64,000 bases of DNA from Mobula hypostoma (lineage: Eukaryota): NCBI RefSeq assembly GCF_963921235.1, contig NC_086108.1, positions 28,956,001-29,020,000 of the forward strand, written 5' to 3'. This document shows positions 3,006 through 60,609 of this stretch, one piece after another. Under the pieces are notes generated by a model. It saw only the letters and a list, made by a program, of their open reading frames with translations, had not been told where the DNA came from and did not search any database. The position numbers and the translations under genes are program-made. Numbering within the stretch: the stretch's first letter is position 1; each line of letters begins with the position of its first letter.

Positions 3006-3051
3006 TATATAATACAATAATGATTAAGAGAAAATGCATATAAACGAAGTT

Positions 3052-3087
3052 AGTCCTGACAAAGGGTCTCGGCCTGAAACGTCGACT
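3052..3087 (+). ncRNA. Hammerhead ribozyme motif in a Penelope 3' fragment (about 3048-3152), G8->A core mutation
   Basis: AGTC CTGACAA A GGGTCTCGGCCT GAAAC GTC GACT. It differs from the intact copy at 51386-51421 only at core G8. Confidence 0.7.
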
Positions 3088-3671
3088 GCACCTCTTCCTA
3101 GAGATGCTGCCTGGCCTGCTGCGTTCACCAGCAACTTTGATGTGTGTTGTATAAACAAAGCTGCTGGCTTGATGCCTCAAATACAGCTGCCCTGCAAACG
3201 AAGGTACCCAATTCAAATCATGTCGGGTCACAGGAGTTGTTGGACCAGAGTGGAGAACTTCAGCCTGCAATTGGATTGGAAAATTCAGCTGAGTTCTTTA
3301 CTTACCAGAAATTATAAAGGAGTGCCATTTTGGGTATATCCGGACTCTGAGATGGTCTTTGGTTACATGGCCCAAGAGAGATGACTAAATAAAGTTCAAG
3401 GGCGTAGTTTTGAGGCAATTCTACTGCCGAAGTTTGGGGACTGGTTAAAAGAAAGACAGGTCTACCTCACAAACTTAGGATTAAGAGACTGATCAGAGGC
3501 CGGTGTAGAGACCAGTGTTGGAAACACACTTTTCGCAATCTATAGCGATTAATCAGGCACAGTATATCTAACTTTGCATACCATACAAAGCTCAGACTGT
3601 AGACTGTGAGGGAGATACAGGAAGGCTAGATGACTGAGCAAAGACATGGCAGATAAAGAAAACTGTGAGCT

Positions 3672-3843
3672 TAAAAAAATGTTGGAGGAACTCAGCAGGC
3701 CAGGCAGCATCTATGGAAAAGGCTAAGCAGTTGATGCTTCAGGGCGAGACCCTTCATCAAGTTTGTCCTTTTCTGTTGAGTTCTTCCAACATTTTGTGTG
3801 TGTTGTCTGGATCTTCAGCATCTGCAGATTCTTCTCATGCTTT
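3672..3843. mobile_element. Short fold-back Penelope-terminus element with degenerate HHR
   Basis: aaaatgttggaggaactcagcagg.. is followed by its inverse ..ctgttgagttcttccaacatttt. A decayed HHR lies on the minus strand at about 3728-3760. Confidence 0.65.
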
Positions 3844-6139: not shown

Positions 6140-6263
6140 ATCCTATCAGCCTGAAACATCGACTGCACCTCTACCTACAGATGCTGCCTGGCCTGCTGCG
6201 TTCACCAGCAACTTTGATGTGTGTTGCTTGAATTTCCAGCATCTGCAGAATTCCTGTTGTTTG
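6140..6263 (+). mobile_element. Penelope 3' terminal fragment (half HHR)
   Basis: Near-identical to the reverse complement of about 42515-42635, the end of the GIY-YIG element. Confidence 0.8.
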
Positions 6264-6559
6264 AGCTTCATCTCTTCTTTGAGCAGGATATTTTCAGTAG
6301 CCATGCAGATAGTGGTATATTTTTCTGATGAGAAGGTTAAACAGCCTGTACCCAGATGCCAGAGCGCAAATTTCATGTTGTGCCCTCAGCCAATATTTAT
6401 TCTTGAACTCACATCATTGAGGAGAATTATCTGCTGACACATCTCAGTACTGCTGCTTCTGGAACTTCTTCACCAGGCAAACATACTTCTGGCAATTTCA
6501 ATATTATTAGACTTGTACTTCATTGGCTTTGATACTTTGGCGAGGTCCTGTGGTGTGCT

Positions 6560-9658: not shown

Positions 9659-9896
9659 TGTGGCAACACACACACAAAGTGCTGGAGGAACTCAGCAGGC
9701 CAGGCAGCATCTATGGAAAAGAGTAAACAGTCGACGTTTCGGGCCGAGACCATTCATCAGGATGGAAAGAAAGACGGGAAGTCTGAGTTATAAGGTGAGG
9801 GGAGGGGAGGAAGAGATACAAGGTGATAGGTGACAGGTGACATGTTCCCAGGATTTGGGCATTTTGTGTGTGTTGTTGCGGATTCTCATGTTTCTG
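9659..9896. mobile_element. Fold-back Penelope-terminus element with HHR (minus strand, 9729-9763)
   Basis: Inverted ends gcaacacacacacaaagtgc / gcattttgtgtgtgttgttgc. Flanking aaactccaatc (9648-9658) and aaactcccatc (9897-9907) form a candidate TSD. HHR core CTGATGA..GAAACGTC is intact. Confidence 0.7.
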
Positions 9897-10945: not shown

Positions 10946-11387
10946 AAGTCAAGGTTACAAAGTATATTTATTATCAATGTTGTACAGTTTCCAACCCTGA
11001 GATTTGTCTTCCCACAGGGATTTACAAACACCATACACATTACAAACACCATTTAAAGTAAAATTCTACTCAAGGACCAAACATCCAACGCCTGAAAAAA
11101 AAAAGAACAAATTGTGCAAAAAATAAGAAGCGAGCAAATAACACATACATTAAACATCAAACCGCAGAGTCCCTGAAGGAGAGTCCACATCCACAAGCCG
11201 TCGAGGTGAGTGAAGGCAGTCCAGAAGCTGATAGCCACAAGCCAGGGCCACGGAGTCAGCCAGTTCGTTCCTCAGGCTCTTAATGAAATATAGTCACTAG
11301 GATGCCTTCTTTGTAATTACATCAGTGGCATGGTACCAGGATCGATCTTCAGAGACATTGACAAAATTTGAGATGCTCATCCTTTCT

Positions 11388-17439: not shown

Positions 17440-18140
17440 TTAAAACAACAAACTGCTGGAGGAACTTAGCATGTAAATCACAAGTATAGAGGCAAAGGAT
17501 TGGTTGACATTTCTGGTCAAAACTGAGAGCGCAGAGGGAAAATGGCTGGCATACAGATGTGAGAGGGAGGGGCGAGGTAAAGGTAGGAATAAATGGAACC
17601 AAAAAAGGGAGGGTGCCAGGAGAGGAAGGGATACAAAAAATGAACAAAGTTCAATAAAGGCCTGATGTTGATTTGTAGGCTACCAAGTGGACTATGAGGT
17701 ATTATACTTCTGTTTACTCTTGGCCTCCTCTAACTCAGCAAGACCAAGCATTTACAAAGCACCAATGGTCCACTCATAATGCTGGCCTTGATTTCCAGTT
17801 ACATTTTTTTCAACACTCCTTCCCATTTCCACACTGACTTGTCTGTCTTTGGTCTTCTCCCCCGCCACAGTGAGGCCAAACACAAATGAGAAAAGCAACC
17901 TCACATGCTGTTTAGACAGCCGACAACTCAATGGTATAAAGATTGAATTTTCCAGTTTAAGGTAACCCACACCCTTGGTGCTCCTTTCCCAGTCCACCTT
18001 TTTTTCTCTCTTCCTTTGTTCACTTTCTCCTATCCCTTTCTCGGCCCTTCATCCCCACTCACTGGCTCCACCAGCATTGGTACCTATCAGCCTCTGTCTC
18101 AGAAACATCAACCATCCCTTTGCCTCCACCGATGTTAGTC
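17440..18140. mobile_element. Old, degenerate Penelope-like inverted composite
   Basis: A minus-oriented terminus (ctgctggaggaacttagc..) is followed by a plus-oriented GIY-YIG C-terminal remnant (..aatggtataaagattgaattttccagttt) and terminus (..tttgcctccaccgatg). Confidence 0.55.
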
Positions 18141-19757: not shown

Positions 19758-19790
<33 letters not shown>

Positions 19791-20258
19791 TGCAGTTAAT
19801 GAGGAAAACCTCATTAGTTTCTTTTCCTCTTCTTAATAACATGCTTAAGTTCAGCGGGTCACCAGGTCTCATCTGAGGTCGTAGGCAGAAGAGAACGGAG
19901 CGCCGGTTGGGCGACACTGGAGGGTAGTGCGCGACTGCCGGTAGGCGGGCGAGAAGGTGGACCAACCCAGCGCACGCCACCTCTCCCGCCACTGGCAGGG
20001 GAGACGGGGCAGGTGCCGGGCGGTCGTGCCTCACGCAAATGATATTAATAAATGCTGGAAAACAAGCAGGAATCACCTGTCTATGCTTAGAAGAGGGCAC
20101 CAACACGTGAACAGATCTACTGCAACCAAAACAATGCACAGCAGATTGGTACGGTGGCCAAGAAAATTTGAAATTACCGTTGCTCGGAAAATTTGAAAGC
20201 AGTGCGGATTATCGAAGGAACCGGATTACAGGTAGTCGGATTAGTGAAAGTCAACCTG
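19041..20258. mobile_element. Tc1/mariner-superfamily (Tigger/pogo-like) non-autonomous element containing rDNA
   Basis: TIRs caggtcgaccttctataatccg / cggattagtgaaagtcaacctg; TA at 19039-40 and 20259-60; repeated subterminal cggatta motifs; nested retro-fragment at about 19163-19473. Confidence 0.85.
19705..19881 (-). pseudogene. 28S rRNA 5'-end fragment (dispersed copy), preceded by probable ITS2 end (about 19882-20035)
   Basis: Minus strand: cgacctcagat..gacccgctgaacttaagcat..gaggaaaagaaactaa..gtgaagagggaagagcccagcgccgaatcccc, the conserved 5' end of eukaryotic LSU rRNA. The upstream segment is GC-rich. Confidence 0.9.
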
Positions 20259-23200
20259 TAATTCCTACAAAGCAAAACCTAACATCAAGAATGACAGAGA
20301 TGCTTCTCTCCCAGATGAGCTCAATGTCTTTCATATGCACGCTTTGAAGGGGAGAATAAAACTACACCAATGCAAATCCCAGCAGCATCTGATGATCTCT
20401 GTCTTGGAGGCTGATGTGAGAACGCCTTTCAAGAGAGTGAACCCTCGCAAGGCGTTAGGCCTTGATGGTGTACTTGGTAGGTTCTGAAAACCTGTGCCAA
20501 CCAACTGGCAGGAGTGGTCAAGGACAATCACACCACTGCCCAATAACAGGGTGAGCTGCCTCAACAACTATTGCCCAGTGATACTCACATCTACTATGAT
20601 GATGCGCTTTGGGAGGTTGGTCATGGCTGTCATCAACTCCTACCCAAGCAAGGATCCGGACATGCTGCAATAGGCCTGCAACTGATGCAATCTCATTGAC
20701 TCTCACTCAGCTTTGGATCAGAAGTAGATTAAATGTAATGCCTAATGTTAGTTCTATCAACTGCAGATGAATTAGAAATTGGGCACTGCATACAATAGGC
20801 CAATCTGATGTTCGCTGTCTTACATCAATTCTCTCACAGATCCCTACCTTGTATAGGCACCTTTTCTTCAGCAGAAAGAATGAGAGGTACAGGTAGCAGA
20901 AACCAATAGGGTTATAAAACAAATATAAAATAGAACATATTATAGATTGCTAGGCAAATATAGAAAATACTCTCGGAAAAGAAAGATTAGTTTCAGATTT
21001 TTGTCAATCAGTTATAGCACTGAGGATCAACACCTCCACGTATTTAAAATCTTGCAAAGGCCATGTACCTTGCTCTAATTATGTATAGGATATGTACTTT
21101 GTAATTATGTTTTAGTGGCCACAAATTACTTCAGTAACATTTCCCATTCAAAATTATGTCACCATTCATGCTCTCAAAAGGGAAGTTCCATTTGTGAGGG
21201 GACAAATGACAAACATAACTTTTTTGAATAATCAAATGGCAGAATGTAGGAGATTTAATTTATAAGCCGGTGAGAGTAAAAATAATGAAACTAAAAACAG
21301 ACATCAAGAACATCTGATAAGCTTTTAACCTGGAGGTGGTAGGCAGGTGAGGAAATTGCAAGGTGAAGACCAAAATATCAACAAAGCACCATTCATATAG
21401 GAGCAAATCCCCTTAGATTGGGAAACAACCATTTTGCTTCATTATTAATAAAGAATAAGAGAAAAAATAAACAGAAAATTAAATGAGCTTTAGCATGAAC
21501 TTTCAGAAAGTAAATCAATTCCTAGAAACTAAGAATGACAGCATATTAAAACATAGGTCAAAATCACTGGTATGGCGCTGGTAGCCTTGTGCCTGTGCAT
21601 GGAATCTCCTGCATCTATTAACGGTGTCTACATATTTAAACAAATAGAGACTTTTAGGTGGATTTGTAAGGTTACACTGAACTCACCAAGACAACTTTTT
21701 GAAGATATCACCAGCATAGTTGATGAGGGTGCATCCATGGAGAGAATATTAATATGAACTTTCAGAAAATAAATCTATTCTCAGAAACTAAGAATGAAAG
21801 TATTTTAAAATAGAGGTCTAACTCACTGGTATGGAAGTTGTGATGAAGCACGAGAGTGTGGGGCATTAAAGAATGCACACGCCAGTTGGCTGTACGCACC
21901 ACACTAAATTGGAACCGGCAGTTTTTCACATGACTCAGATGAAGAAACAGAATACAGCCTATCCAGGTTTGCTGGCAAAGCTGTATCAGACATGGATTTA
22001 GAGCAACTGGGAGCAGAAAGTGGCAATGACATTAATAGGTTCCAGCGTAATAGTGAAGACTGTATTTCTAAAGTATTTTAACCACCTTACATGCTGAAAG
22101 GTCTTGAGTTTGTAAAATAAATGCAATGGGTAAAGCAGGCCATGCAAGATTCCTCCAAAAAGATCGGGGCTTTCAATAAAAAAGGAACTAGATACAATGC
22201 TGAAAGTTTGGGGAACTACAGGCCATGGAAACTATAAGAAAGAGTGGAAGAGCAGAACAGAGGGGTTTGGGAACAAAATATATAATGTTGATGGTGAGAA
22301 CAAAAAAAAAGGATAACAAAATAACTCTTTTTTAAACCAGATATGCTGGAGATAGAGATGGAAGGTACGTAACACATAAAAAGTTTTAGTTTGATGCTCT
22401 CTGGGGCACTGGACCCCAGGAAGAATATGTTGGCAGCCATGATACTCAGATAAAAAGATTTAAATAATGAATTATGATAAGCCAGCTTTCTGCTTCCTTT
22501 TACAATTTATCATAATAAGTTTACTCATTGCAACCTGCCCAGGTTTGCCAATAGAAAGACAGCTGGGAAAGTGACCTGCAACACAGGAGCCTACAAAGGG
22601 ACAGGAGGTGGTTGTGAGGAGGCAAGCAGGGTACGATGTGAAGAAAGGTGAGTTTACTCACTTTGGTAGAAAGGAAAAAAAAACAATATTTGAAATGAAA
22701 AACTAGTAAACACCTGTGTAGGGAGAAATCTCAGTGTGATGATTCAGAGATACAGCAAGCAATAAGGTCTTTATTGCAAAGGGTATGGAGTACATATGAA
22801 TGTTGCCATCATGGCCTAGAACATCAGCAAGTATAGAGATGAAGGACTATGCCAGCTCTGCTCTTCAAGGGAAGGTTGACATCTCTTGAAGACAGTGTGA
22901 CAGGGTCATAGGACTGACTGGACAACCTCTCCTATGGCCATGCTTCTCGGGGTCCTATGGTCAATCAGAGATCGAAATGACAGCCATTAAAGGATTTGAT
23001 CAAGACACACACTGCTGGAGGAACTCAGTAGGCCAGGCAGCAGCTATGGAGGGGAATAAACAGTTAATGTTTCTGCCCGAGACCCTTTATCAGTCCCTTC
23101 ACCAAAACTTTGAATAATTAGTGTTAATTAGAATTAGGGCTAAGTTGTTCAGGGGTACTATCAAATAGCACAATGATTCAAAAAGAGGAACACAATGAAT

Positions 23201-27443: not shown

Positions 27444-27720
27444 CGTTCACTGCTTTTATTCTTTTTGCAAGAGGGATCTGGGCAGAACTGCGGCAGTGTG
27501 GCAGAGAGGAGGAGGAGGAGGAGGAGGGGACAGGAAGAGGAAGAGGACGAGGCAGCTGAGAGCTGATGACTGGGTGCGGGTACAGGTCTGGGTGCCGGCC
27601 GTGAGCCGTCCCGGGCTGTGTCTCGTTCGCTTTGAGCCTGACTCACGGCAGCAGCGCCCGGCGGGCGGCAGACCAGCGCCAAAGCCGAGCAGTCGACAGC
27701 ACAACCACCAATCACAGCGA
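27444..27720 (-). promoter_or_regulatory. CpG-rich promoter and probable non-coding first exon of an unidentified minus-strand gene
   Basis: The only non-repeat CpG-dense island in the window. It has CCAAT (27707-27711), a GC box gcgggcgg (about 27661), an AP-1-like tgactca (about 27639), a pyrimidine-rich (TCC)n leader, and a donor GAACG|GTGAGT at 27444/27443. Confidence 0.7.
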
Positions 27721-30700
27721 GGGCAATGCCGTGCAACCATGGAGACAAAGCTAGAACTTACCGGAGCCCGCAACCAAATTAACATTTGCTCGGCTTAAAA
27801 AAAAATTAGAGGGGATAATATTCCAACAACCAGCATCACTTCAATTCCACCCCCATATCTTCCTTTCAGACAACAAGCAGGGCATGTTACATAATTTTTT
27901 GATACTGCTGGCTGCCAACAATGCAAATTTTTTAAAAAGCTGAAGGCTCCGTTTAGTGGAACAACGGCAGCCAAGATGAAACTCCTGGACTAATTGCAGT
28001 ACTGTTTCCTCAAGATTCCCTTAATTGTGATTCTTTAGTGTGGCATTTATTTGATTGAAGAAAAAAAATGGTTTGACATTATAATTTCCATTTTGGTTGC
28101 AGTTATTTGTTCGTATGTACTATGGCATATACTGTACCCAATTGGTTTGTAGAATTCTTACACCACCATTGGTTTGCGTTAGTTGCCTCAGCTTACCAAA
28201 CTAGCAGATATCAAAGAGGCCTTGGACTTTGGAAACATGCTTAATACTCAAAACTTGAATCGGATGTGTTAGATTCTTCAGGAGAGCAATACAGCAGAGG
28301 CCACTGCCTCTAATGTGCTGAACTTGCATTCAAAGCACAGCATTAGATAACACAATTTTGTCTAGAGATGGACATTCCTAAAGATATTGTGGTTTCTTGA
28401 ACCCTCTGTAAATCCCCAATTTACTTCCCCCATTCATGGTTTGGTTGCCCCCTATGTTGTCTCAAAATTAAAATCTGGCATTAAAAACAGGAAATGCTTG
28501 GCAGGTCAAATGGAACCTGTGGAATGAGAAACAGAGTTAACTTTATAAATGTAAATGTAATTAAACCCAGTCCAGATGAATAGTCTCGACCTGAAATGTC
28601 TACTTTCCTTTTCCCTCCCCAGAGGCTGCCTGGCCCACTCTGGTACCTTGTTATGTTGCTTAATATTTCAAATCCAATATCAAAGAACCTCAGATCTGAA
28701 ACATTGACTCTCTTTCTCTCTCTAGAGAAAAGGCCTGACCTGCTGTGTGTTTCTAGTATTTCCTAACAATTTTTCCACGTTACCAGCATCCGCAATTTTT
28801 TTTGACTTTCACTGAAATCTGCCATCCCTTCTTTAACCTTTAACCTCTTTGCTAGCTTCAAGATGCTCCTTAAAACTTATCAGTTTGCCTATGCTTCTGA
28901 TACAATTATCTCCTAACATGCCTCCGTGATGGAGTGGAATTGAGAACATTGAAGCAGAGAGCATTGAAGTATTTTGTTTTGTTAAAGGTATCATATTAAG
29001 GCAAGGTGTAAAAATGTTAGAATTCAGAAACAGACTACACACACCAGCATGTCCAGGGATCATTTTTCCTGTGGATATTTCCCGACAAAATTAGCACCAA
29101 CATGCAAATATATGATTTAGGAGCAGAAGTCAAGCCCTTACTTCCTTGAAACTGCTCCACCATTTAATGAAGTTGTGGTAGATCTAATTGCAACCTCATA
29201 CCTACATTCCTGTTACCCTGCTAACATTTGACACCTTTCTGTTCACATCAAAATTAAAATTAAAAAGTCTTACAATCCTGTGAGGGTAAAAGAAAATTCC
29301 TGTTTTATCTTTGAGTAGTAATCCCTAGATCTAGGTTCAAATGGAAGAAATAATACATATTATTCATTGAATTAGAATACAGTAAAACTGTTAATCCTGA
29401 ACACGGAGAGCTTTGATGGGCCAAGATAGCGATTTTTATAAATTATTTTTGATGGTTCAACTAATATTTAATTCACTTTTTCTTTAGGTATACACAGTAG
29501 AAAAGTATTCTTCTGGTGAATTTAAAGGGAGTGTGAAAAACAAGGCCCTAGCAATTTTTAAAAGCAGCACAACCAACAGGACAAGTTAACATGAAAGGGA
29601 GGTTGAGAACTCTGGGCTCCAATGTGTGGAAATAACAGCGGGAACATGGCTCCAGAGAGTGGTCAGGGAGCATGGCAAATATCACCTGGTGAGCCAGATG
29701 CAAACAGTTTCTAAATAGTTGGATAGTGAATTGTAAGAGTTTTGCTGTATTATGAAGACAAGCAAGAAAATGGGAAGAATTAAAAGGAAAAGGTTTTGAC
29801 CAGTTTTTCTTTTAACATTCTGATGGTCCAATGATGTAACAGCTCAGTATTGCCATCATTAGCCACCCTTCAGTACTGCAGATTTTCTGTAAATGTTAAG
29901 CCAATGTAAATCTCATTTGTCATCGGATTTTAATTATGAAACAATTCTGGAAATTAAAGACCTTGCTATACTTCCATCTGCTTTCCAAAACAAGCCTTGA
30001 ACCTAGTTGCGGTTTTCTGCACAGCAGTGACACTATTGGTCAGTATGAGCATTGCTCTTCTTTTCCCTAGTTGGAATTGTTGTTTTTCAAGTGAATTGCC
30101 TTGAAAAAAATCAGCCACAGAAATGCTGAGATTATCCAGGGATTTCCGGTTTTGTAATTCCCTTCTGAAATTACAAAGTTTAAATTTGATGGCTTAATTT
30201 CTGAGTCATTTTCATGGATGTTGGAAACATAAATTATCTTCTTCTTGGACAGTCCTTCAGAAATGAGGATGGCCTGCATTGCTGAGGGTTCTGAGATGGC
30301 AGCTCAGGCCAATTAAGGGATCCACAGACTGTCTCAGGTAGGCAGGAAGTGGGCAACACGTGGTTACTGTGGGAGATGATGTGATCTTTCTGCTGTTAAC
30401 TCTGATGAAGAGTCTCAGCCCAAAACGTCAATTCTTATTCCCTTCCATAGGTGCTACCTGACCGGCTGAGTTCATCCAGCATTTTGTATGCATTATGCTG
30501 TTTACTCTGTGCTTCTTGGTGCTCCTGTAACAAAGGCACCAGGTTCTCAATGAGAACCTGAAAATTCCTCTTCTCCTGCGCAGTTATGGGTCAGGGATTC
30601 TCAGTGATTCAGTAGAGATGCTTCACTTTTTCAACCAGGCTTGGAAAACATCTTTAAATCTTTTCATCTGTTTGCCCTGTAATCTCATTTCATGACAGAG

Positions 30701-36800: not shown

Positions 36801-37345
36801 GTGGACCTCGAAGGGCAGCTGAAGTTCCCCAACCATATCGCAGCCACCACCCTGTGGCCAGACATTGTCCTAGTGTCTGAGTCTACTAAGCAAGTGGTGC
36901 TGCTGGAGCTGACAGTCCCATGGGAAGATAGCTTGGAAGAGGCCTTTGAAAGGAAGCTCTCCAAGTACGCAGGACTGGTCAGCAACTGTCAGCAGGCTGG
37001 ATGGAGAGCGAGGTGTCTCCCAGTGGAGGCTGGTTGTAGGGGATTTGTAGCCTGTTCTTTAGTTAGAGCATTCAGCATTTTGGGCATCGAGGGAGAGAGG
37101 AAGAGGAGAGCCATCCGCAGTACCACCGATGCGGCAGAGAGGGCCTCAAGATGGCTGCGGCTCACAAGAGGGAAGCCATGGAGTCATAAGTAGCTAGCCA
37201 TCTGGACACAAGCTGGGGTCTGATCAGCCCCAGCTGGGTCACCTGGAGGAGGTTGTATGATGTTGAAAGACCCGAAACACCTGATGATTCCAGGAACATC
37301 ACTGAAGATGTGTCCAGAAGCATCAATAGATGTATGTACACAGCG
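33896..37345 (+). mobile_element. Near full-length HERO-type non-LTR retrotransposon (RT plus restriction-like endonuclease)
   Basis: Direct repeat ggatac at 33890-33895 and 37346-37351 inside the Rex1 host; single long disrupted ORF and a 3' UTR of about 150 nt. Confidence 0.92.
33941..37193 (+). pseudogene. Disrupted HERO polyprotein: N-terminal Zn finger, RT, CCHC knuckle, PD-(D/E)xK nuclease
   Basis: CACGKICKNDRGLKIHQARMKC; QFRIISLL, LDLANAYGSIPH, GIITGCTIS, FMDDL; CPLCSKRGTLEHILSGC, RWRHDQVL, PDIVLV..LELTVPWE. Lesions: TAA 34211-13, +1 frameshift near 34540, TGA 36237-39 and TGA 36243-45. Confidence 0.92.
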
Positions 37346-37986: not shown

Positions 37987-38602
37987 TGAATCAATATGTT
38001 GCGTCCAAGTTAGGTCCTCAGATATTGACACCCAGAAACTTGAAATTGTTCAAGCTCTCTATTTCTGATGCCTCTATAAGGATTGGTTTGCGTTCCCTTG
38101 TCTTACCCTTCCTGAAGTCCACTATCAGCTCTTTCGTCTTACCGACGTTGAGTACAAGGTTGTTGCTACGACACCACTCAACTAAGTTGTATACTTTGCT
38201 CCTGCTTGTATATTGTGCCCTTTTGTCACAGTCTGAAATTCTGCCAGCAATGGTTGTATCATCAGCAAAGGGATAGATGGATGGCATGTGTATAGCGAGA
38301 GTAGAGCAGTGGGTTAAGCACACATCTTTGTGGTGCACCAGTGTTGATTGTCAGCAAGGTGGAGATATTATTTCCAATCCTCACAGATTTTGGTCTTCCA
38401 GTTAGGAAGTCGATGATCTAGTTGCAGAGGGAGGTACAGAAGCCTAGGTTCTAAAAGTTTTCAATCAGGCCTACAGGAATGATGGTGTTAAATACTGAGC
38501 TGTAGTCAGTAAACAACATCCTGATATAGGTATTTGCATTTACATAGGTATTTGTACTTTTTTCCATAGATGCTGCCCGGTTTGCTAAGTTCCTCCAATA
38601 TT

Positions 38603-39400
38603 TTCAAAAGTTTCAAAGGTACATTTCATGTTCGAGAAACGTATACAATGTACATCCTGAAATGTTTTTTCTTTGCAACCTTCCACAAAAACAGAGGAGG
38701 GCTCCAAAGAATGAATGACAGTTAAGTGTTAGAACCCCGAAGTCCCCCCCAGCTCTCCTCCCTCCTGCACATAAGAGGCAGCAAGCAACAATCTCCCCTC
38801 CACCCGCCGGCAAAAAAAAAGCATTGGCACCCGCCAGCGAGCACTCGAGCGTGAGCAAGGCAACAGCAAAGACACAGGCTTGCAGTACTCCAAAGACTAC
38901 ATTGTTCACCCGGCATCTGACATTCCCTAATAAGGGAGAAAAAGATGTTTCCATTTCACAGTGAGAGGGGCGACATTACAAACAACTTGCTGGTTTACAA
39001 TGTTAAAAGTCTGTTGCGTCACTTTTTTCCGAGTTCTGTGCCCAAAGATCTCAGGTCTCTGGGCACATAGCCAGAGATCTTCCGTCTCCAATGACACACC
39101 GATCTCCTGCCATGACACCGACCTTCGATCCACATGTTTCCAGAGTCACGAGATGTCAGTCCTCCGAAGACAAGCTGAACTCTTAGGCCGAGCCCTTGGT
39201 GTGCCGAATAATGGCCAGTCGTGAAACCCTGAGAGCGAGTCCCATTCCCGCAAAGAACCATTGTCAGCATGTAACTCCAGGTCAGGATCTTCAGAAGAAC
39301 CCTGAAAGGGAAAAATAGAGATGTTAAAGATGGAAATAGAGCTGTTTCTGAAGATGCAGGCAAAGGCGTTGCTGTTAGGCGTCATTAATCCTCCTTAGCT
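38603..39400 (-). mobile_element. Non-coding retroposon (SINE-like or non-autonomous LINE), unclassified
   Basis: Its 3' part is shared with about 19163-19473 and 31596-31670. It ends aaatgtacctttgaaacttttgaa and has no recognisable ORF. Confidence 0.6.
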
Positions 39401-40970: not shown

Positions 40971-42612
40971 ATGATCAAATATTCACATGTTTCTTTAATT
41001 ATGCTCTGGCATGAGGAACTTGGATAATTATTTCCTGATTTTCTGTTGAACCTAACTTAACTTATAGAAGACAATTTTTCGATGTACGTGTACTAAAGCA
41101 TACTTCTGTACACGATAACGTTACTTAAAGCTGAAAAGTGAGCATACATTAAAACAGCAGTGTTATTGCAACAGCCATACATGTAATATTACAGCTGTTT
41201 TAGTGGATGCAGCCCTGGCCAATGTGATTGAGCTTTGCAGGAAGCCTTGTGAGATGGAAAGTTGGAAAAAATTCAAAATCTTGTAGAAGGAAAGGTAAAT
41301 TTCACAGTGTGAGTTTATAGGGAAATAGAGTTATGCAGACATGCAGCACAAAAATGGCTGTTCGATGACAACAGGGAACCATACCCATGTCGACAGTAGG
41401 GAAGCTATAACACGAATCTCATTTACCTGCACTTGGTCCATGGCCATCTGTGCTTTGCTGATTCAAGTGCTTGCCCAGATACTTATAAGACCATAATATA
41501 TAGGAACAGAATTAGGCCATTTGGCCCATTGAATTTGTTCTACTGTTTCATCATGGCTGATCCTTTTTCCCTCTCGGCCCCAATCTCCTGCCTTCTCCCC
41601 ATATCCCTTCATGCCCTGACTAATCAAGAATCTATCAACTTCTGCCTTAAATATACCAAACAACTTGTCTGCCATAGCGGCCTGTAGCAATGAATTCCAG
41701 AGATAACTTTGCACAAGTTGAGAGTATCACTCTCCCCCATCACCTTCTGCAGTGTATCCAGATTCCAGCTGCTCTGTACATGAAGAAGTTCTTCCTAAGA
41801 TTCCCTTCAACACTTTTATCCTTTACCCTTAACTTGTACTTTCAAAATACTGAATTAGAGAAAGTAGTACTGAGAAAGTATGCAAAAACTCTAAAGTACT
41901 ACATTAGAAAGACACATATCATCTCCAGTGAGGAAACCTTCTGATTAGCGCACATAATGCACAGAACAATGAGGTATTCTTTGTCAAACAGTACACAGCA
42001 AAAGTGAAACTAACTTCAGCAATTCAGAAGGGTATGGGAGTCATGAAGAGAAGGATTATGGCTTTATAGTTTTTTTTTGTATCACCCACAGTGCCAGAAA
42101 TGAATTAAAAATTTGTTTACAGAGCAGTGCAGGACAGGAACAGGACCTTTGGCTTGCAATGTTTGTGCTGAACATGATGCCAATTTAAACAGCGTATCTA
42201 CCTGCACATGATCATCCATGCACATCCATTCCATGTCCTTGTAGATGCAGCAAAGATAAGGTATCTAATTGTCAACGAGTACCTGTGGCCTTCCTTGATT
42301 TTCACATACTCTCCTGATAAGACAACATGAATTTTTGTGCTCAGTATTTGATACCTTGAAGAAAGCTTAGAACAGAGAACATAGAACATAGAATAGTACA
42401 GCACAGTACAGGCCCTTCGGCCCACAATGTTGTGCCAACCCTCAAACCCTGCCTCCCATATAAGCCCCCACCTTAAATTCCTCCATACACCTGTCTAGTA
42501 GTCTCTTAAACTTCAAACAACAGGAATTCTGCAGATGCTGGAAATTCAAGCAACATACATCAAAGTTGCTGGTGAATGCAGCAGGCCAGGCAGCATCTGT
42601 AGGAAGAGGTGC

Positions 42613-42648
42613 AGTCAACGTTTCAGGCCGATACCCTTCATCAGGACT
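42613..42648 (-). ncRNA. Minimal type-I hammerhead ribozyme, intact core, GUU site
   Basis: Minus strand AGTC CTGATGA A GGGTATCGGCCT GAAAC GTT GACT. Confidence 0.8.
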
Positions 42649-42942
42649 AACTGAAGGAAGAGTGAGTAAGGGATTTGAAAGTTGGAGGGGGAGGGGGAGA
42701 TCCAAAATGATAGGAGAAGACAGGAGCGGGAGGGATAGAGCCAAGAGCTGGACAGGTGATAGGCAAAAGGGGATACGAGAGGATCATGGGACAGGAAGTC
42801 CGGGAAGAAAGACAAGGGGGGGGGGACCCAGAGGATGGGCAAGAGGTATATTCAGAGGGACAGAGGGAGAAAAAGGAGAGTGAGAGAAAGAATGTGTGCA
42901 TAAAAATGAGTAACAGATGGGGTACGAGGGGGAGGTGGGGCC

Positions 42943-43269
42943 TTAGCGGAAGTTAGAGAAGTCGATGTTCATGCCATCAGGTTGGAGGCTACCCAGACGG
43001 AATATAAGGTGTTGTTCCTCCAACCTGAGTGTGGCTTCATCTTTACAGTAGAGGAGGCCGTGGATAGACATATCAGAATGGGAAAGGGATGTGGAATTAA
43101 AATGTGTGGCCACTGGGAGATCCTGCTTTCTCTGGCGGACAGAGCATAGATGTTCAGCAAAGCGGTCTCCCAGTCTGCGTCGGGTCTCGCCAATATATAA
43201 AAGGCCACATCGGGAGCACCGGACGCAGTATATCACCCCAGTCGACTCACAGGTGAAGTGTTGCCTCAC
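42943..43269 (-). CDS. Penelope GIY-YIG endonuclease domain (fragment of the element ORF)
   Basis: FTCESTGVIYCVRCSRCGLLYIGETRRRLGDRFAEH..EEQHLIFRLGSLQPDGMNIDF. Confidence 0.85.
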   Translation of the reverse strand: MRQHFTCESTGVIYCVRCSRCGLLYIGETRRRLGDRFAEHLCSVRQRKQDLPVATHFNSTSLSHSDMSIHGLLYCKDEATLRLEEQHLIFRLGSLQPDGMNIDFSNFR

Positions 43270-46200
43270 CTGGAAGGACTGTTTGGGGCCCTGAATGGTG
43301 GTAAGGGAGGAAGTGTAAGGGCAAGTGTAGCACTTGTTCCGCTTACACGGATAAGTGCCAGGAGGGAGATCAGTGGGGAGGGATGTGGGGGACGAATGTT
43401 CTTAAACTTCACTAGTGTATCTGCCTCCACCACTGACTCAGGCAGTGCATTCCACGCACCAACCACTCTCTGGGTGAAAAACCTTCCTCTAATATCCCCC
43501 TTGAACTTCCCACGCCTTACCTTAAGGCCATGTCCTCTTGTATTGAGCAGTGGTGCCCTGGGGAAGAGGCACTGACCATCCACTCTATCTATTCCCCTTA
43601 TTATCTTGTACACTTCTATCATGTCTCCTCTCATCCTCCTTCTCTCCAAAGAGTAAAGCCGTAGCTCCCTTAATCTCTGATCATAATGCATACTCCCTAA
43701 ACCAGGCAGCATCCTGGTAAATCTCCTCTGTACCCTTTCCAATGCTTCCACATCCTTCCTATAGTGAGGCGACCAGAACTGGACACAGTACTCCAAATGT
43801 GCCCTAACCAGAGTTTTACAGAGCTGCATCATTACATCACGACTCTTAAACTCTATCCCTCGACTTATGAAAGCTGACGCCCTATAAGCTTTCTTAACTA
43901 CCCTATCCACCTGTGAGGCAACTTTCAGGGAGTTGTGGACATTAACCCCCAGATCCCTCTGCTCCTCCACACTACCAAGTATCCTGCCATTTACTTTATA
44001 CTCTGCCTTGGAGTTTGTCCTTCCAAAGTGTACCACCTCACACTTCTCCGGGTTGAACTCCATCTGCCACTTCTCAGCCCACTTCTGCATCCTATCAATG
44101 TCTCCCTGCAATCTTCGACAATCCTCTACACTATCTACAACACCACCAACCTTTGTGTCGTCTGCAAACTTGCCAACTCACCTTTTTACCCCCACATCCA
44201 GGTCGTTAATAAAAATCACGAAAAGTAGAGGTCCCAGAACAGATGCTTGTGGGGCACCACTAGTCACAATCCTCCAATCTGAATGTACTCCCTCCACCAC
44301 GACCCACTGCCTTCTGCAGGCAAGCCAATTCTGAATGCACCTGGCCAAACTTCCCTGGATACCATGCCTTCTGACTTTCTGAATAAGCCTGCAGTGTGGA
44401 ACCTTGTCAAATGCCTTACTAAAATCCATATAGATCACATCCACTGCACTACTCTCATCTATATGCCTGGCCACCTCCTCAAAGAACTCTATCAGACTTG
44501 TTAGACACGATCTGACCTTCACAAAGCCATGCTGACTGACCCTGATCAGGCCATGATTCTCTAAATGCCCAGAGATTTTATCTCTAAGAATCTTTTCCAA
44601 CAGCTCTCCCACCACAGACGTAAGGCTCACTGGTCTATAATTACCCGGACTATCCCTACTACCTTTTTTGAACAAGGGGACAACATTCGCCTCCCTCCAA
44701 TCCTCAGGTACCATTCCCGTGGACAACGAGGACATAAAGATCCTAGCCAGAGGCTCAGCAATCTCTTCCCTTGCCTCGTGGAGCAGCCTGGGGACTATTC
44801 CGTCAGGCCCTGGGGACTTATCCATCCTAATGTATTTCAACAACTCCAACACCTCCTCTCCCTTAATATCAACATGCTCCAGAACATCAACCTCACTCAT
44901 ATTGTCCTCATCATCATCAAGTTCCCTCTCATTGGTGAATACCGAAGAGAAGTAATCATTGAGGACCTCGCTCACTTCCATAGCCTCCAGGCACATCCTC
45001 CTACCTTTATTTCTAATCGGTCCTACCTTCACTCCTGTCATCCGTTTTTTCTTCACATAATTGAAGAATGCCTTGGGGTTTTCCTTTACCCTACTTGCCA
45101 AGGCCTTCTCGTGCTCCCTTCTTGCTCTTCTCAGCCCCTTCTTAAGCTCCTTTCTTGCTTCCCTATATTCCTCAATAGACCCATCTGATTCTAGCTTCCT
45201 AAACCTCATGTATGCTGCCTTCTTGCACCTGACTAGATTTTCCACCTCACTTGTCACCCATGGTTCCTTCACCCTACCATTCTTTATCTTCCTCACCGGG
45301 ACAAATTTATCCCTAACATCCTGCAAGAGATCTCTAAACATCGATCACATGTCCATAGTACATTTCCCTGCAAAAACATCATCCCAATTCACACCCACAA
45401 GTTCTAGCCTTATAGCCTCATAATTTTCCCTTCCCCAATTAAAAATTTTCCTGTCCTCTCCAATTCTATCCTTTTCTATGATAACGCTAAAGGCCAGGGA
45501 GCGGTGGTCACTGTCCCCTAGATGCTCACCCACTGAGAGAACTGTGACCTGACCTGCTTCATTACCTAGTACTTGATCTAATATGGCATTCCCCCTAGTC
45601 CACATACTTTGACAGGAATCCGTCCTGGACAACACTTAACAAACTCTGCCCCATCTAAACCCTTGGAACTAATCAGGTGCCAATCAATATTAGGGAAGTT
45701 AAAGTCACCCATGATAACAACCCTGTTATTTTTGCACCTTTCCAAAATCTGCCTCCCAATCTGCTCCTCTGTATCTCTGCTGCTACCAGGGGGCCTATAG
45801 AATACCCCCACTAGAGTAACTGCTCCCTTCCTGTTCCTGACTTCCACCCATACTGACTCAAAAGATGATCCTGCTACATTACCCACCCTTTCTGTAGCTG
45901 TAATAGTATCCCTGACCAGTATTGCCACCCTTCCTCCCCTTTTTCCACCCTCTCTATCCCTTTTAAAGTACTGAAATCCAGGAATATTGAGAATCCATTC
46001 CTGCCCTGGTGCCAGCCAAGTCTCTGTAATGGCTACATCATAATTCCATGTGTGTATCCAAGCTCTCAGTTCATCACCTTTATTCCTGATGCATTGAGGT
46101 ACACACATTTCAGCCCTTCTACCTTACTGTCTTTACACCGTTTATTCTGCTTCTCTTTCCTCAAAGCCTCGCTATATATTAGATCTGGCTTTACAAAGCT

Positions 46201-50720: not shown

Positions 50721-51385
50721 CACACAATCTTTAATTAATACTTAAAGGTAATAACCCAGTGTTATATAAACATGTGAATGTACAGCTGTGATTAAGATAG
50801 AAATTAGACAAATTATACTGTAAGGAAAATGATTTTGTTTTAAGGTTCTTTGAAGATGAAGTATTTATAGAAGGGAGTTAAAATCCACCTTCCTAAAGTT
50901 AGCGTTTTAAGGCCAGTGGGATCTGAAAGCAGAAAACATATTATGTTTAAAACTCTGTTAAACTTTATGCAACATTGTCAGAGCATTTGTGACAAGTCTG
51001 CTTTTTAAATCCATACAGTTTCCCTTTCATGCCATTGAAGCAAGCTGCAAATATCACACAACCTGATATGAAGTATTGATTCACTGACTACGGTATCGGG
51101 ATTTCCATATTAAACTGCATATGTGTGGAAATCCTGAAGTTGTAGCCTGTTGCATAGTACCAAGGACCATTGTTATACAATTGGTTCTGCCAAATTCAGG
51201 TCATTGGTTGGTTCTTAGTCAATCAACATTTGAATATTCACAATCACATCACTGCAATACCCTTTTCAGCCCTCTTTGTCATTTTATAATTTCTTTGATT
51301 TTCACAAGTAAAAGTTGGTATGCAAATATTTATAAAAGTTGCTGGTGAATGCAGCAGGCCAGGCAGCATCTCTAGGAAGAGGTAC

Positions 51386-51421
51386 AGTCGACGTTTCAGG
51401 CCGAGACCCTTCGTCAGGACT
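51386..51421 (-). ncRNA. Minimal type-I hammerhead ribozyme, intact core, GUC site
   Basis: Minus strand AGTC CTGACGA A GGGTCTCGGCCT GAAAC GTC GACT. Stem I is AGTC/GACT, stem II is GGGT-CTCG-GCCT, and ACGT is palindromic in stem/loop III. Confidence 0.85.
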
Positions 51422-51618
51422 AACTGAAAGAAGAGATAGTAAGAGATTTGAAAGTGGGAGGGGGAGGGGGAGATCTGAAATGTTAGGAGAAGACAGGAGG
51501 GGGAGAGATGGAGCTAAGAGCTGGAAAGTTGATTGGCAAAAGGGATATGAAAGGATCATGAGACGGGAGGCCTAGGGAGAAAGAAAAGGGGAGGGGGGAA
51601 TCCTAGAGGATGGTCAAG

Positions 51619-52415
51619 TAGAGTAGAGCTACTAGGAATTGATGTTTCAATCCCAATGGTAAGTTGGCACTCTCGATGTTGGCAGTGGGCTTGGAGTGGT
51701 GACAAGGAGGGAGGGTAGGTACATCATCGGGGTCATCAGGTGGGCACCCTCCTTCTTTGATGTTTCGTTGATAAGCCCACGACATCTCCAGAGGGCTCAA
51801 GGGTGCTACCTGGTGTCCCAGATACACCCCCCTCAGTTCCATACCCCCCTGTCTTCATCTTGCAGCCCAGTTGTTGTCTTTCCTTTTACTCCAAATCCAA
51901 TTGCTGCTTTCTTCTGCTGCATTTGACAAGGACTTGATTGCTTGTTGGAGGAAATGACCCCTCACCCCCATCTTCTTCAATAGACTGGTCGTAGATGTAG
52001 CAACGAATCCCCTGCATCCCACTTCTACAGGGAAAATCTTGGTCTTCCAGCCATTCTGGGCAGCTTCAGTTGCCAGTTCAGAGTACTTAGTCTTTTTCCT
52101 CTCATAAGCTTCTTCGACACCATCTTCCCATGGTACTGTCAATTCCACAACATATGCCATCTTGGCTGTTGTGGACCACAGGACCACGTCTGGCCGGAGT
52201 GTTGTAGCTGCAATGTCTGGGGGAAACACAAGCTTTTTTTCCAAGTCCACGTCCATTTTCCAATTCCGAGCAATCTGCAGAATGCCTACATCTTTGATGT
52301 TATATGGTGCTCTGGAGGTTGGCCTACTGGTACAAATTGTGTAATGTGGACATTTCCTGCCGATGTTTGTGGGAGAGCATTTGTGGTGATTCGCCTCTGT
52401 TCCAAGATTGATGCC
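51619..52415 (-). mobile_element. 5'-truncated HERO-type element, second subfamily
   Basis: ORF 51855..52496 carries RPDVVLWS..VVELTVPWEDGVEEAYERKKTKY..PVEVGCRGF; its 3' UTR differs from that of the 33.9-37.3 kb copy. Confidence 0.88.
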
Positions 52416-53385
52416 AGAGAAAAAGAGAGAGAGAAAAAAATATATATAATAATAAAAAGTAAGTAGCGGATGGGGTACAAAGGGGAAGTGGGGCATTAAC
52501 GGAAGTTAGAGAAGTCAATGTTCATGCCATCAGGTTGGAGGCTACCCAGACAGAATATAAGGTGTTGTTCCTCCAACCTGAGTGTTCCTCCAATCTGAAC
52601 ACCCACGCTCCCTACGCGATTCCCTTGTCCATTCGTCTCCCCCATCCCTTCCCACCGATCTCCCTTCCGGCACTTATCCTTGTAAGCGGAACAAGTGCTG
52701 CACATGCCCTTACACTTCCTCCCTCACCACCATTCAGGGCCCCAGGCATTCCTTCCAGGTGAGGCGACACTTCACCTGTGAGTCGGCTGGGGTGATATAC
52801 TGCGTCCGGTGCTCCTGATGTGGCCTTCTATATATTGGCAAGACCCGATGCAGGCTGGGAGACCGTTTCGCTGAACACCTATGCTCTGTCCGCCAGTGAA
52901 AGCAGGATCTCCCAGTGGCCACACATTTTAATTCCATGTCCCATTCCCATTCTGATATGTCAATCCACGGCCTCCTCTACTTTCAAGATGAAGCCACACT
53001 CAGGTTGGAGGAACAACACCTTATATTCCTCCAACCTCCAGCCTGATGGCATGAACATTGACTTCTCAAACTTCCGTTAATGCCCCTCCTCCACTTCGTA
53101 CCCCATCCGTTATTTATTTATTTATTATTATTATTGTATATATTTTTTCTCTCTCTCTTTTTCTCCCTCTGTCCCTCTCACTATACCCCTTGCCCATCCT
53201 CTGGGATTCCCCCCTCCCCCTTTCTTTCTCCCTAGGCCTCCTGTCCCATGATTCTCTCATATCCCTTTTGCCAATCAACTTTCCAGCTCTTGTCTTCATC
53301 CCTCCCCCTCCTGTCTTCTCCTATCATTTTTGATCTCCCCCTCCCCCTCCCACTTTCAAATATCTTACTAACTCTTCTTTCAGTT

Positions 53386-53421
53386 AGTCCTGACAAAGGG
53401 TCTCGTCCCGAAACGTCGACT
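53386..53421 (+). ncRNA. Hammerhead motif, G8->A core mutation
   Basis: AGTC CTGACAA A GGGTCTCGTCCC GAAAC GTC GACT. Confidence 0.7.
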
Positions 53422-55289
53422 GTACCTCTTCCTAGAGATGCTGCCTGGCCTGCTGTGTTCACCAGCAACTCTTTTATGTGTGTTGCTCGAAATTCCAGCA
53501 TCTGCAGATTTCCTCGTGTATGCAAGTATTTATCCTCAGTTTACAAAGTGCCAATTAGTTTTGTTATCCATAGACTACCTACCACAAGCATCACATGTCT
53601 TCTTATTTTTATAAACTTTGAAGTATATTAAGGAAAAGGAAAATCAAGCAAATGGTAAGATTTTAATGTTTGCATTTAGTGGCATTAGTTTAAAAGCATT
53701 AAAACTCACACTGGTGGGACGCAAAGAGAGACATACTGAAATATACAAGTAACTAATGCAACTATGTAATGGAGAGGTCAAGTTAATATGTAATTACAGT
53801 TAATCTTGGATGGGCTTTCAATTACTTTCAAGATTAGGTATTTTCTGAAGATTAGGAAAAATGTCCCAGTTTTAAAATCTTTGGCCACTTATAGCACAAA
53901 CAATGCAACACATTTTAAAGTGCCTATTAGTTAGAGTCACTGATTTGGAGATTCATTCCTTTGACTTCCATCTCTGTTTGCAAACTTACTTTCTGGTCTT
54001 GGAAAACGCCAAAAGGAATTGGTTTTGTGCACTGTGAAAAAGAGTTTCAGAGGTATTTTTCTCAGGATGAACAATCTCTTGAACTGGTTGATATTCGTTT
54101 CCTGATTACAGATTCCATAATATGTTTTGCTCCAATTTTATGGACATCCTTGGTGTGAAATGCTTGAACTCATGATTGAACACCTCAGGCCATTTTAAGA
54201 TACTAAAATAGATATTGAGAAGGAGGATGTGGAAGGAGTGAAAGAATTAAATGTAATTATGATTAAACGGATCCTTTTATTTATTCTAATCTATCTCAAA
54301 TCTCAAACCTCTGCCACCCAGTCTTCCCTTCCATTATCATAAACTGTAGAGATGAATTAATAGGTACCTAAACATGATGGACACAAACATAATACATTTC
54401 AAATTTATTCTTACAAATTGTAAATTACATTTTTTATCACTAATTTTTATTGTAGCACCAGCAAATTTCATTCAATACAATCAGTTGCTGATTACATTTT
54501 GACTGTTTAACCCAGCCACCCCCCAACCCTCATCGCCATCCCCCCTCCACCCCTCATCCTCATCCCCATCCCCACCCCCCTCTCCACTCTTCTCTCTCCC
54601 CCCGCACCCCTCTCCCCTCCACCAACCAACTGAATAGTAGTACATACACAGGCAGAGCATTCCTATTTTAACAGAAGATCTTTTCAATTAGATATCAAAT
54701 TTGTCCACATTAAGATTGTGTTTGGTCGTGCATCATTTACTCTTGCTGACGATAGTTCCAGGTAAGAAATGTCCAAAAAGCTCTGAAGCCAGTGAGTCCT
54801 TGAAATATCATGAGGAGGTTTCCAACAGGACTACAATCTTCTTAGCTGCAGTCAGGCCTGCCAGCCAGACTTGCGTGTTTTTTCTGTAAGGGAAAGGTGG
54901 GAGTCACATTTAGAAGATGTACAGCGAGGTCCATTGGTAATTGTACCCCCGTTAGTTCTGTAAGAGTACTGATAACCTTCCCCCACATAAATTACATTTT
55001 TGTGTTTTGTGTTTTGTATTTCTCTGTTCCCTCCAAGAACTCTGATTTCACACTACCTTTAAAATTAGTAATTTTCTTGTCAGACAAATTTATCATTCTC
55101 ATCTACAACCTAAACAAAGTAATTAGCCCACTGTTCATTTTATTCAAGTGCTTGAAGAATGAAGAATGATTAAGTTACCTAAAACAATGCTCCTGGATAG
55201 GTAAGGCAACTTGCTGGTCTCCAGCAAGAATTTGATTGTGATGAGGGGTCGACGATAATTGGACCCAAGGTGCTGTTGCATGTTGCAGA

Positions 55290-58260: not shown

Positions 58261-60609
58261 ATCTTTTAGAATCCTTTTAGATGAATTTAGAATGCCAAAT
58301 GGGGAAAATTCATGTGGTTAAAACTTCCAGTGCGACAAAATGTCACCAGCAAAATGTAACCAATGTGTAAAAGGAGCCTCTGACAAAATGGTCATAAATA
58401 AAATACTTCTTATGGCTTACAGTTTTGAAAACTGAATTGCACGTTTGTGGTTTTATGAACAAGGTTGATCATTCACTGTTATATAGAGTTTCCATTGTGA
58501 TTCATAATCACGCTGTTTTTTTATTAAAAAATAAACAAGAACCAGCTTGTTTTCTTCCACTTGAATACATTTGTGACACATTTCATATTCCCTTTCCATT
58601 AGCTACCATGTCTTGAGATAATTGCAACAGATAAGAGCAGTTTACCATGAGCATGAGGTGTCCTGTCGGCTAAGAATAATAAACACAGCATTATCCTTGA
58701 TTCCTTTGCCTCAGGTGAAATCTATTCCACCGCTTCAGAACTGTACAGGAGTTGTACACTTGCACTCTCGGACAAAAACACAGCTGGTAGATAAAGGACA
58801 AGGATTAGTATTTTAATATTTTTCAGTTGTTGCTTTTCAACTGAGTCTTTCAACTGTCTGAAGCAGATACAGGTTGTTACAACTGCGGTGTCATATCTGA
58901 TCTTGTGATGACTTTCAGACACATTTTTGCAGACTTAAAAGTTGACTAATCCAACTGACTCTGCCCTGTCTACTTATCCATTGTTAAAACACTTATCCTT
59001 GCAATGAGAATGATGGACAGCAGTAGCTCAGCACAGTAACAGACCCCAGCCCACTTTATCCATAGCCCACACTGACCATTTCACCCTCCTATTCTAATCC
59101 CTGGCTATTTCTAAGCAATCCTGGCCACTGTTCATAATCCCGAGGTCATCTAAACCTCTGGGGCTTGTATCCTGACTTTGCCGTGTCTAAATTCTGGAAC
59201 ACACAGTACAACATCATGATGGGGGTACTTTTTTCCAGAAGGACTACAGCGACTCGAGGAGGTATCTGGCCACCACCATCCCGAGAGCGATTAAGGGTTG
59301 ACCATAAATCCTGGCCTTGCAGCAGCACGCAGGTTATGAGAAATGAATGTGAAATGAAACATAAACTTTAATCCATTCATTCACCCATAATTACCTTTAC
59401 AGAAGAGTCCTAAAATTGCAAAAGAATCATAATTAAATAAGGTGCCACACAACTGGAAATGAACGTATCGTGAAGTGAAGACAAAAGGGACAGCAGGTCC
59501 TGCAATCCAGGGGAAATAACACCTGGAAACACTCAATGGAATAAGCAGGATGTCTGATAAAATGTCAAATTCAATGTTTCAGGTTGAAACAGGATGAATG
59601 GAGGGTCTCAACCTGAAACATTGACCAAATTTTGCCTCAGCAAGTGGCTGTGGGGAAGTGGCACAAAAGAGGAGTTGAGGCCTGTGGCAGATCAATCATT
59701 GTCATGTTCAATTCGTCGGGGAGGAAGTGATATACTCTTGCTCCTATGTTTTTAATATTCTTTAATTTCCATGATTTATTATAGTTTATCATTTCCAATG
59801 AAATCAGTAGTGTGAAGTGCTGAGGTATCCTCCATGAAATTAGAATCCACTGGCATTTTCAGCCTAAGCTTACTGAAAACGTTGGTCTTCTGATTTTACC
59901 AGCACCATGTAGCTCACAAGTGCTCATGCTAATAGTATGAGAAATGATCAACCTGGATTGTGACTGTCTTTCTGTTGAGCTTGATGCACAGCTGCTTGTG
60001 TTTGCCTGGCTGAGGGCAGAAAGAAGGGCTCATCTGTGAGGTCCAGATCTGATTAGTCATAAAGCAGAACACATTAAATTCAGCCGTTACTTGAAAATGG
60101 GCTCTGTTTAGTCTTGTGGCTGATTTTTTTCCCTGTTATAGTTCTCATTCAATTAATTAATTTTAATTATCTTGATCCTGTCTGGTGAAGGGCACAGTTG
60201 GTAGCCCTTTCGTCACTGAATCAGGAAGTCATGTGTTCAAATCTCACTCAAGCAACCTACGCACATCATCTAGTATTGGTAGTTCACTTCAATGCAGAAC
60301 GAATGCGGCTTATTTGAGCGACCAGATGCATTCAAAGAAAGATTGAGACAGTTCTCTGTCACGTTCTGATAAGCATCTATTCCTTGATCAGAAGCACTAA
60401 ACTGTGTCCTTTTTCTTCACTGAAATTTGAGTCCTCCTAAAACTCAAACAGAGTCCTGCATATACGCCTTCCTGACTTTGTCCATAGAGATACTAGCTCT
60501 GTCTCAAAACCTCAAAGCCATGCAGGGCTGCTGCTGATCTCTGTTACACCTCACAGCCTGCTAAACAAAAGAGACCTCATCAACTTTTCCTTCAGCCCAC
60601 AGGAGTAGG

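Follow-up and report, generated by a model that had tools for sequence, protein, structure and literature searches.

Hammerhead motifs of the window

The window, by which we mean the whole analysed stretch of 64 kb, carries on its minus strand, at 51385-51422, a motif that reads as stem I, CUGACGA, an inserted A, stem II (GGGU-CUCG-GCCU), GAAA, a C-G pair, UC and, beyond the predicted cut, the second half of stem I. Stem I has five pairs, one of them U-G, and stem II has four pairs and a CUCG loop. In hammerhead numbering the motif comprises C3-A9, the extra A, G10.1 to U11.1, G12-A15.1 and a C15.2-G16.2 pair without a loop, and its GUC triplet ends at 51390. The motif is ordinary in kind: it belongs to the minimal type-I hammerheads (min-HHRs), and it lies in a pLTR of a Penelope-like element (PLE). 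An earlier reading made from the sequence only had placed the motif at 51386-51421, and its letters and coordinates were correct when the minus strand was read again. The copies of the family are collected in table 1.

The descriptor used here combines the core, a loopless palindromic stem III, an NUH triplet and at least three pairs in each of stems I and II. Two sites pass it in the 64-kb window (51386 and 42613), against a mean of 0.003 and a maximum of 1 in 300 dinucleotide shuffles, none of which reached 2. The core-only search adds 9729 (three sites; shuffle mean 0.27; 0/300 shuffles reach 3). The bare pattern CTGANGA..GAAAC is a weak discriminator, with three matches in the window and three also reached in 6 of 100 shuffles. 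No hammerhead family was returned by an Rfam scan of the window at the gathering score, and a metagenome pattern scan for the motif gave 0 matches.

An HMM built from seven copies recovered 14 remnants in the window at E≤0.012, namely all 13 copies of the earlier list and a tail-only remnant at 38553; the best match in the reversed window, which served as the control, had an E of 1.7. The weakest matches are those at 59605 (E 0.001) and 17510 (E 0.012). Both the CUGAnGA and GAAA boxes and an NUH triplet are present in three of the 14 remnants (51386, 42613 and 9729). Among the five near-complete copies, the nucleotide inserted after A9 is always A and the palindromic 15.2-16.2 region without loop III is always ACGU, while a short stem I (3-5 pairs) and stem II are found in four; the exception is 9729 (corrected span 9728-9765), which has only two in-register stem I pairs and a U at 10.1. 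The G10.1-C11.1 pair is G-C in 53386, G-U by a CpG change in 51386, 42613 and 3052, and U-C in 9729, and no window copy unites the core, both stems and G10.1-C11.1, 51386 being one base short. The sequence-only reading had called 51386, 42613 and 9729 core-intact; the core letters are indeed kept, but none of the three has the full consensus, so that "intact" is too strong: the first two have a G10.1-U11.1 wobble and the third has lost stems I and II.

Table 1. PLE copies, their parts and their flanking repeats in the window
Feature	Position	Strand	Remarks
Decayed copy	3671..3768	-	HMM
HHR (G8A) and downstream end only	3050..3149	+	100-bp insertion from stem I on
Copy truncated within stem II, with tail	6145..6257	+	
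Older-subfamily copy	9659..9817	-	HHR 9728-9765: core letters kept, stems I and II broken
Decayed copy, left arm of old head-to-head pair	17445..17521	-	
Decayed copy	22996..23101	-	HMM
Decayed copy	28568..28660	+	HMM
Decayed copy, 3' half	28694..28756	+	HMM
Decayed copy	30393..30489	+	HMM
Downstream end only, no ribozyme core	38553..38609	+	HMM; absent from the earlier list
5'-truncated PLE copy A	42516..43399	-	Perfect 12-bp TSDs 42504-42515, 43400-43411
min-HHR, core intact, GUU triplet (cut site), G10.1-U11.1	42612..42649	-	
Open C-terminal ORF fragment, CX4CxxC linker and GIY-YIG	42946..43399	-	152 codons
Left TSD of B/C pair	51318..51333	+	Matches 53518-53533 at 15/16; final 2 nt perhaps the element's
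pLTR/3' end of arm C, short end without tail	51334..51618	-	92% identical to 53189-53476
min-HHR, core intact, G10.1-U11.1 wobble	51385..51422	-	Cut after 51390 (predicted)
Unrelated, presumably RLE-type, non-LTR 3' fragment inside arm C	51619..52416	-	49% aa identity over 138 aa to 36246-37190 ORF
C-terminal GIY-YIG fragment and start of 3' UTR, arm C	52417..52588	-	tblastn 93% over 30 aa
Arm B: broken zinc-linker and GIY-YIG fragment, 3' UTR/pLTR, HHR, long end with tail	52630..53517	+	
min-HHR with G8A (read as CpG decay, C3 uncompensated) and stem II mismatch	53385..53422	+	
Right TSD of B/C pair	53518..53533	+	
Decayed copy	59598..59632	+	HMM

The host element and its insertions

Copy A shows the order of parts at the 3' end of the element: the stop of the ORF, about 300 nt of pyrimidine-rich UTR, the motif and a further 101 nt. 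The ORF fragment at 42946-43399 matches Pfam PF01541 (GIY-YIG) with 24 bits against a cut-off of 22.6, and a linker zinc finger (C-X4-C-xx-C) is present in its frame. The best protein match, at 95% identity, bears the name of Mobula hypostoma, and 11 of 16 protein matches carry Mobula or Hypanus names; the element is likely that of a ray. Several ray homologues (P0001, P0003 and P0012) run upstream into a PLE-type RT with YIDD/YVDN, and RT-EN relatives of 800-1000 aa exist that are 23-52% identical. In the available portion of Craig et al. 2021 (PMC8557442), the CX2-5CxxC linker is given as a mark of Neptune and Nematis and as missing from Penelope/Poseidon. The linker zinc finger speaks against the Penelope/Poseidon clade for the window element, which is likely a Neptune-type PLE by a linker motif that Nematis shares. 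Neither a full-length element nor a tandem pLTR-ORF junction was seen in the window. As the sequence-only reading had stated, the motif is found on the sense strand of the attached coding sequence; this holds at 42613, 53386 and 51386, and at the old pair 17445-18125 as far as weak matches show.

The 51386 copy belongs to a single head-to-head insertion, of which arm C runs from 52588 to 51334 on the minus strand and arm B from 52630 to 53517 on the plus strand, and only arm B has the long end with the tail. The non-LTR fragment split arm C at a later time; we take this fragment to be RLE from its PD..ELTVPWE motif. It sits within the CT-rich UTR of the arm. The 3052 copy is a 100-bp insertion between 11-bp TSDs at 3039-3049 and 3150-3160 (10/11), and the older head-to-head pair at 17445-18125 has a plus-strand arm with a GIY-YIG remnant (17809-17916) and the 3' half of an HHR near 18102-18125. 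The bounded copies are 5'-truncated, have AT-rich TSDs of 11-16 bp and are in some cases head-to-head. Past the predicted cut they continue for about 56-66 or 100-101 nt. Both an inverted partner and a tail of 30-40 bp on one side have been described for PLEs. The insertion at 3050-3149 takes in stem I from its outer edge onwards, and the corresponding edge at 53386 is where 227 contigs of run X19 part from the copy, which reflects either truncation or a subfamily boundary. Two further regions, 3671-3830 and 59545-59632, are possible very small head-to-head PLE pairs with weak second arms (E 0.6 and 3.5).

Decay of the motifs

The reference for scoring changes was the CpG-aware majority of five copies, in which the 38-nt motif has five CpGs. 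Changes were counted in the four youngest copies, 9729 being left out as a member of an older subfamily. Deamination-type changes affect 7 of 40 CpG bases, compared with other changes at 2 of 112 non-CpG bases (Fisher p=0.0013), in a test that is partly circular because the majority was built from the same copies. The CpG o/e of the window is 0.31. G8A, C11.1U, C17U and the U at N7 are all changes of the CpG-deamination type, and 51386 differs from the five-copy majority by one base.

G8A likely abolishes hammerhead cleavage. The sequence-only reading had called it a natural variant; by the counts above it is CpG decay and not a functional variant. A U3-A8 covariant of the kind found in Schistosoma was rejected, as C3 is kept in both G8A copies (3052 and 53386). 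In contigs of four public runs on arm B, position 8 is G in 88-96% of the summed depth and the stem II G (G11.4) is present again in 88-99%, and no majority change at 53409 is found among the changes listed. The apparent catalytic variants are methylation scars. In PAc, the Poseidon of Anolis carolinensis (Frangieh et al. 2024, PMC11167929, cited throughout from the portion available), G8C kills the ribozyme.

Stem pairing over the 14 copies is 68.9%, above every slid control. Covariation of stems I and II, which the sequence-only reading had named as a test of itself, does not show in the 14 copies of the window, since 344 of 500 shuffles score as high; this is expected of copies in neutral decay.

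Proposed life cycle and activity of the copies

With high confidence we interpret the motif as a min-HHR at the 3' end of truncated, CpG-mutated copies of a likely Neptune-type, likely ray PLE, in which the copies are most likely inert and only the version of the source element would cut, likely as a dimer or with the element's protein. The inertness of the window copies, taken separately, is held with much the same confidence. In the proposed cycle, the endonuclease would nick AT-rich DNA and reverse transcription would have two alternative start sites downstream of the ribozyme, a choice that would account for the optional tail of ~35 nt. The reverse transcriptase would read through the uncut motif and would usually stop early, making the ribozyme the most-copied part of the element. 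The copied RNA was likely uncut, because the bounded copies reach 56-101 nt past the cut site. After insertion the five CpGs of the motif would deaminate, yielding G8A (likely dead), C11.1U, C17U and a neutral U at N7. In the source element, two motifs could share a four-pair ACGU helix.

It is quite improbable that the solo copies 51386 and 42613 are instead working ribozymes in host transcripts, acting through long-range or trans dimers or with the PLE protein. Both pass the descriptor on the same strand, the motif lies in exons of two gene models, a dimer with the shared four-pair ACGU helix can be drawn at -11.5 kcal/mol, and min-HHR dimers and trimers of Schistosoma cleave weakly (PMC4209133, in the part available). 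However, each lacks G10.1-C11.1 and they lie 8.8 kb apart, each being the nearest same-strand passing partner of the other. The fold of 51386 also favours non-catalytic forms: the active dimer, at -11.5 kcal/mol, is less stable than a pair of misfolded monomers (-22) or the best dimer (-30.3), the tertiary energy of the core being ignored, and cleavage would therefore need help. A minus-strand transcript would moreover bury 51386 in a duplex of ~288 bp with the antisense of arm B, and for Anolis PAc the available part of PMC11167929 reports no detected RNA ends at the cut site. The idea that the copies cleave as dimers here is not supported: neither passing copy has a same-strand partner close by, and the one vertebrate PLE ribozyme that has been reconstituted worked only with the PLE protein, while insertion could do without it (PMC11167929). 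Because it is one base off the majority, 51386 may keep some activity if a partner or the protein is supplied.

Very improbable is the reading of the copies as monomers of a retrozyme or SINE-like unit, non-autonomous and propagated through a circular RNA of its own. Many copies do consist of the HHR and the downstream end only (3050-3149), and animal non-LTR retrozymes, according to the accessible part of a preprint (bioRxiv 10.64898/2026.07.22.740005), share a type-I HHR in pLTR-derived repeats and are reported in one chondrichthyan. Such retrozymes are defined by two or more tandem units in a row that have complete HHRs, whereas the window has no head-to-tail array of intact units; its sole close same-strand pair, 28569/28696 (127 nt apart), is fully decayed. 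The 5' ends of the copies range from stem II to within the ORF, and GIY-YIG coding sequence is attached to three of the best copies; the pattern is one of a coding element truncated at its 5' end and not of a fixed unit. There is next to no chance that the hammerhead likeness arose by accident within an ordinary repeat: covariation over the 14 copies does not exceed shuffles, no Rfam hammerhead family matches and the monomer fold z-scores are about 0 (as expected because a min-HHR without stem III has no stable monomer fold), but the core letters, inserted A, palindrome, two stems and pLTR position all fit the published cross-phylum consensus.

Coding and splicing at the motif

The sequence-only reading remarked that the motif recurs in the ORF track as a spurious peptide, PDEGSRPETST. 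This is partly borne out: a PDEGSRPET frame occurs in two Mobula gene models, neither of which has an RT domain. As an ORF N-terminus of the kind seen in PAc, the peptide matches only these two of 10 candidates, and it was found at the start of none of the 44 long homologues inspected (P0019-P0062, of 46), which are 23-52% identical. By analogy with PAc the PDEGSRPET frame may have a coding role, because the PAc ORF starts inside its ribozyme. Its presence in gene models flags PLE read-through. Ray gene models P0001-P0006, P0012 and P0016-P0018 contain pieces of the element, by exonisation or annotation read-through; the names of these NCBI models are STARD3NL X3, ABHD14A X1, DIPK1C X2, mucin-2 X2 and CHID1 X1.

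In three copies a pyrimidine tract followed by AG ends 2 nt before stem I (53360-53385 on the plus strand, 51423-51445 and 42650-42672 on the minus strand), and in arm B only, TACTAAC lies upstream of the tract. The tract and AG could function as a 3' splice site, in which case a vertebrate Neptune element would have kept an intron end of the Penelope style and would splice ribozyme exons into many ray host mRNAs; we regard this as quite improbable. If true, the element's protein could switch on cleavage in host mRNAs of rays. The intron of D. virilis Penelope ends at helix I, and several published motifs have AG there, in the available part of PMC4209133. The Mobula model P0017 joins the peptide at a phase compatible with splicing, as judged without its exon structure. 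Against the splice-site reading, the three UTRs are 79-80% pyrimidine throughout. They contain no GTRAG donor, and no GT..AG joint ends at the AG of the tract among the 15 of 304 joints listed. The branch-point A is replaced by T at 79-84% of depth in two runs and at 20-24% in the other two.

Comparison with published elements

The signatures of PLE min-HHRs are described in Cervera and De la Pena 2014 (PMC4209133), to the extent that the paper was available, as a nucleotide between 9 and 10.1, a palindromic loopless 15.2-16.2, a U-rich 5' flank and a short stem I; activity there is absent as a monomer and low as a dimer. The window motif agrees with these min-HHRs in CUGAnGA with an inserted base, a stem II starting with G, GAAA, the C-G palindrome and NUH. 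It is also alike in its stem I of 3-5 pairs, its U-rich 5' flank, its position after the EN domain and its mostly solo occurrence in truncated copies with some opposite-strand neighbours. The closest of the examples listed there is the Neptune of Acropora digitifera (BACK01051917), which shares the core, the inserted A, a four-pair stem II with a 4-nt loop and CGUC. Stem II has four pairs in the window motif and 7-8 in the motifs of Schistosoma and teleosts, and the window family looks more uniform and denser (14 remnants in 64 kb) than the families of that paper. The text of its Table S1 and Fig. S3 names no cartilaginous fish (no shark or ray term).

PAc (PMC11167929) and the window element both insert at AT-rich targets and carry the HHR close to the end of the pLTR. 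Beyond the HHR both have two 3' ends, separated by about 35 nt, and uncut RNA is copied in PAc as it likely is in the window element. PAc differs in its Penelope/Poseidon clade, the window element being of likely Neptune type, and in the start of its ORF within the HHR. The main substrate in PAc is RNA that has not been cut, and its ribozyme depends on the PLE protein for cutting; two internal start sites of reverse transcription define the tail, and ribozyme mutants still insert. The Neptune EN+ PLEs, in the portion of PMC8557442 cited above, share the C-terminal GIY-YIG, the CX2-5CxxC linker, CCHH-type residues, the pLTR, the inverted 5'-truncated partner and the one-sided tail. Unlike theirs, the window targets are AT-rich with TSDs and not obviously microsatellites, and the window copies are not full-length. 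No account of the ray family was found in a literature search for Penelope hammerheads in cartilaginous fish or Penelope in Mobula, although the supplement of the retrozyme preprint may list it. The motif is a known PLE feature, here extended to a ray family that was not found in print.

Abundance and significance

One copy drew 50,070 and 54,784 contigs from two public runs of unrecorded kind, numbers that are not copy number; the very large population expected in the sequence-only reading is supported. If the window is typical, 14 remnants in 64 kb correspond to about 220,000 per Gb (120,000-370,000), and two passing motifs in 64 kb to about 31,000 per Gb (4,000-113,000). Cervera and De la Pena 2014 (PMC4209133) had already counted min-HHRs by the thousand in single genomes of fish and amphibians, with about 4,000 for coelacanth and 9,000 for Xenopus. 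The importance of the locus reaches little beyond annotation; a vertebrate family that is young, uniform and high-copy lends itself to the question of whether PLE hammerheads are ever cut in vivo.

Other features of the window

A nearly full-length non-LTR retroelement, which we take to be of RLE type, occupies 34503-37193 on the plus strand, with RVT_1 and zf-RVT in two frames. Other LINE RT fragments lie at 11301-12856, 43266-45344 and 6533-7663, with RVT_1 confirmed at 11301 and 44181. Of the 500-bp bins of the window, 27500-28000 alone resembles a CpG island (GC 0.53, o/e 0.66). A decayed rDNA fragment is located at 19761-20000 on the minus strand, with an Rfam LSU match at 19779-19858 and GC-rich, ITS2-like sequence upstream.
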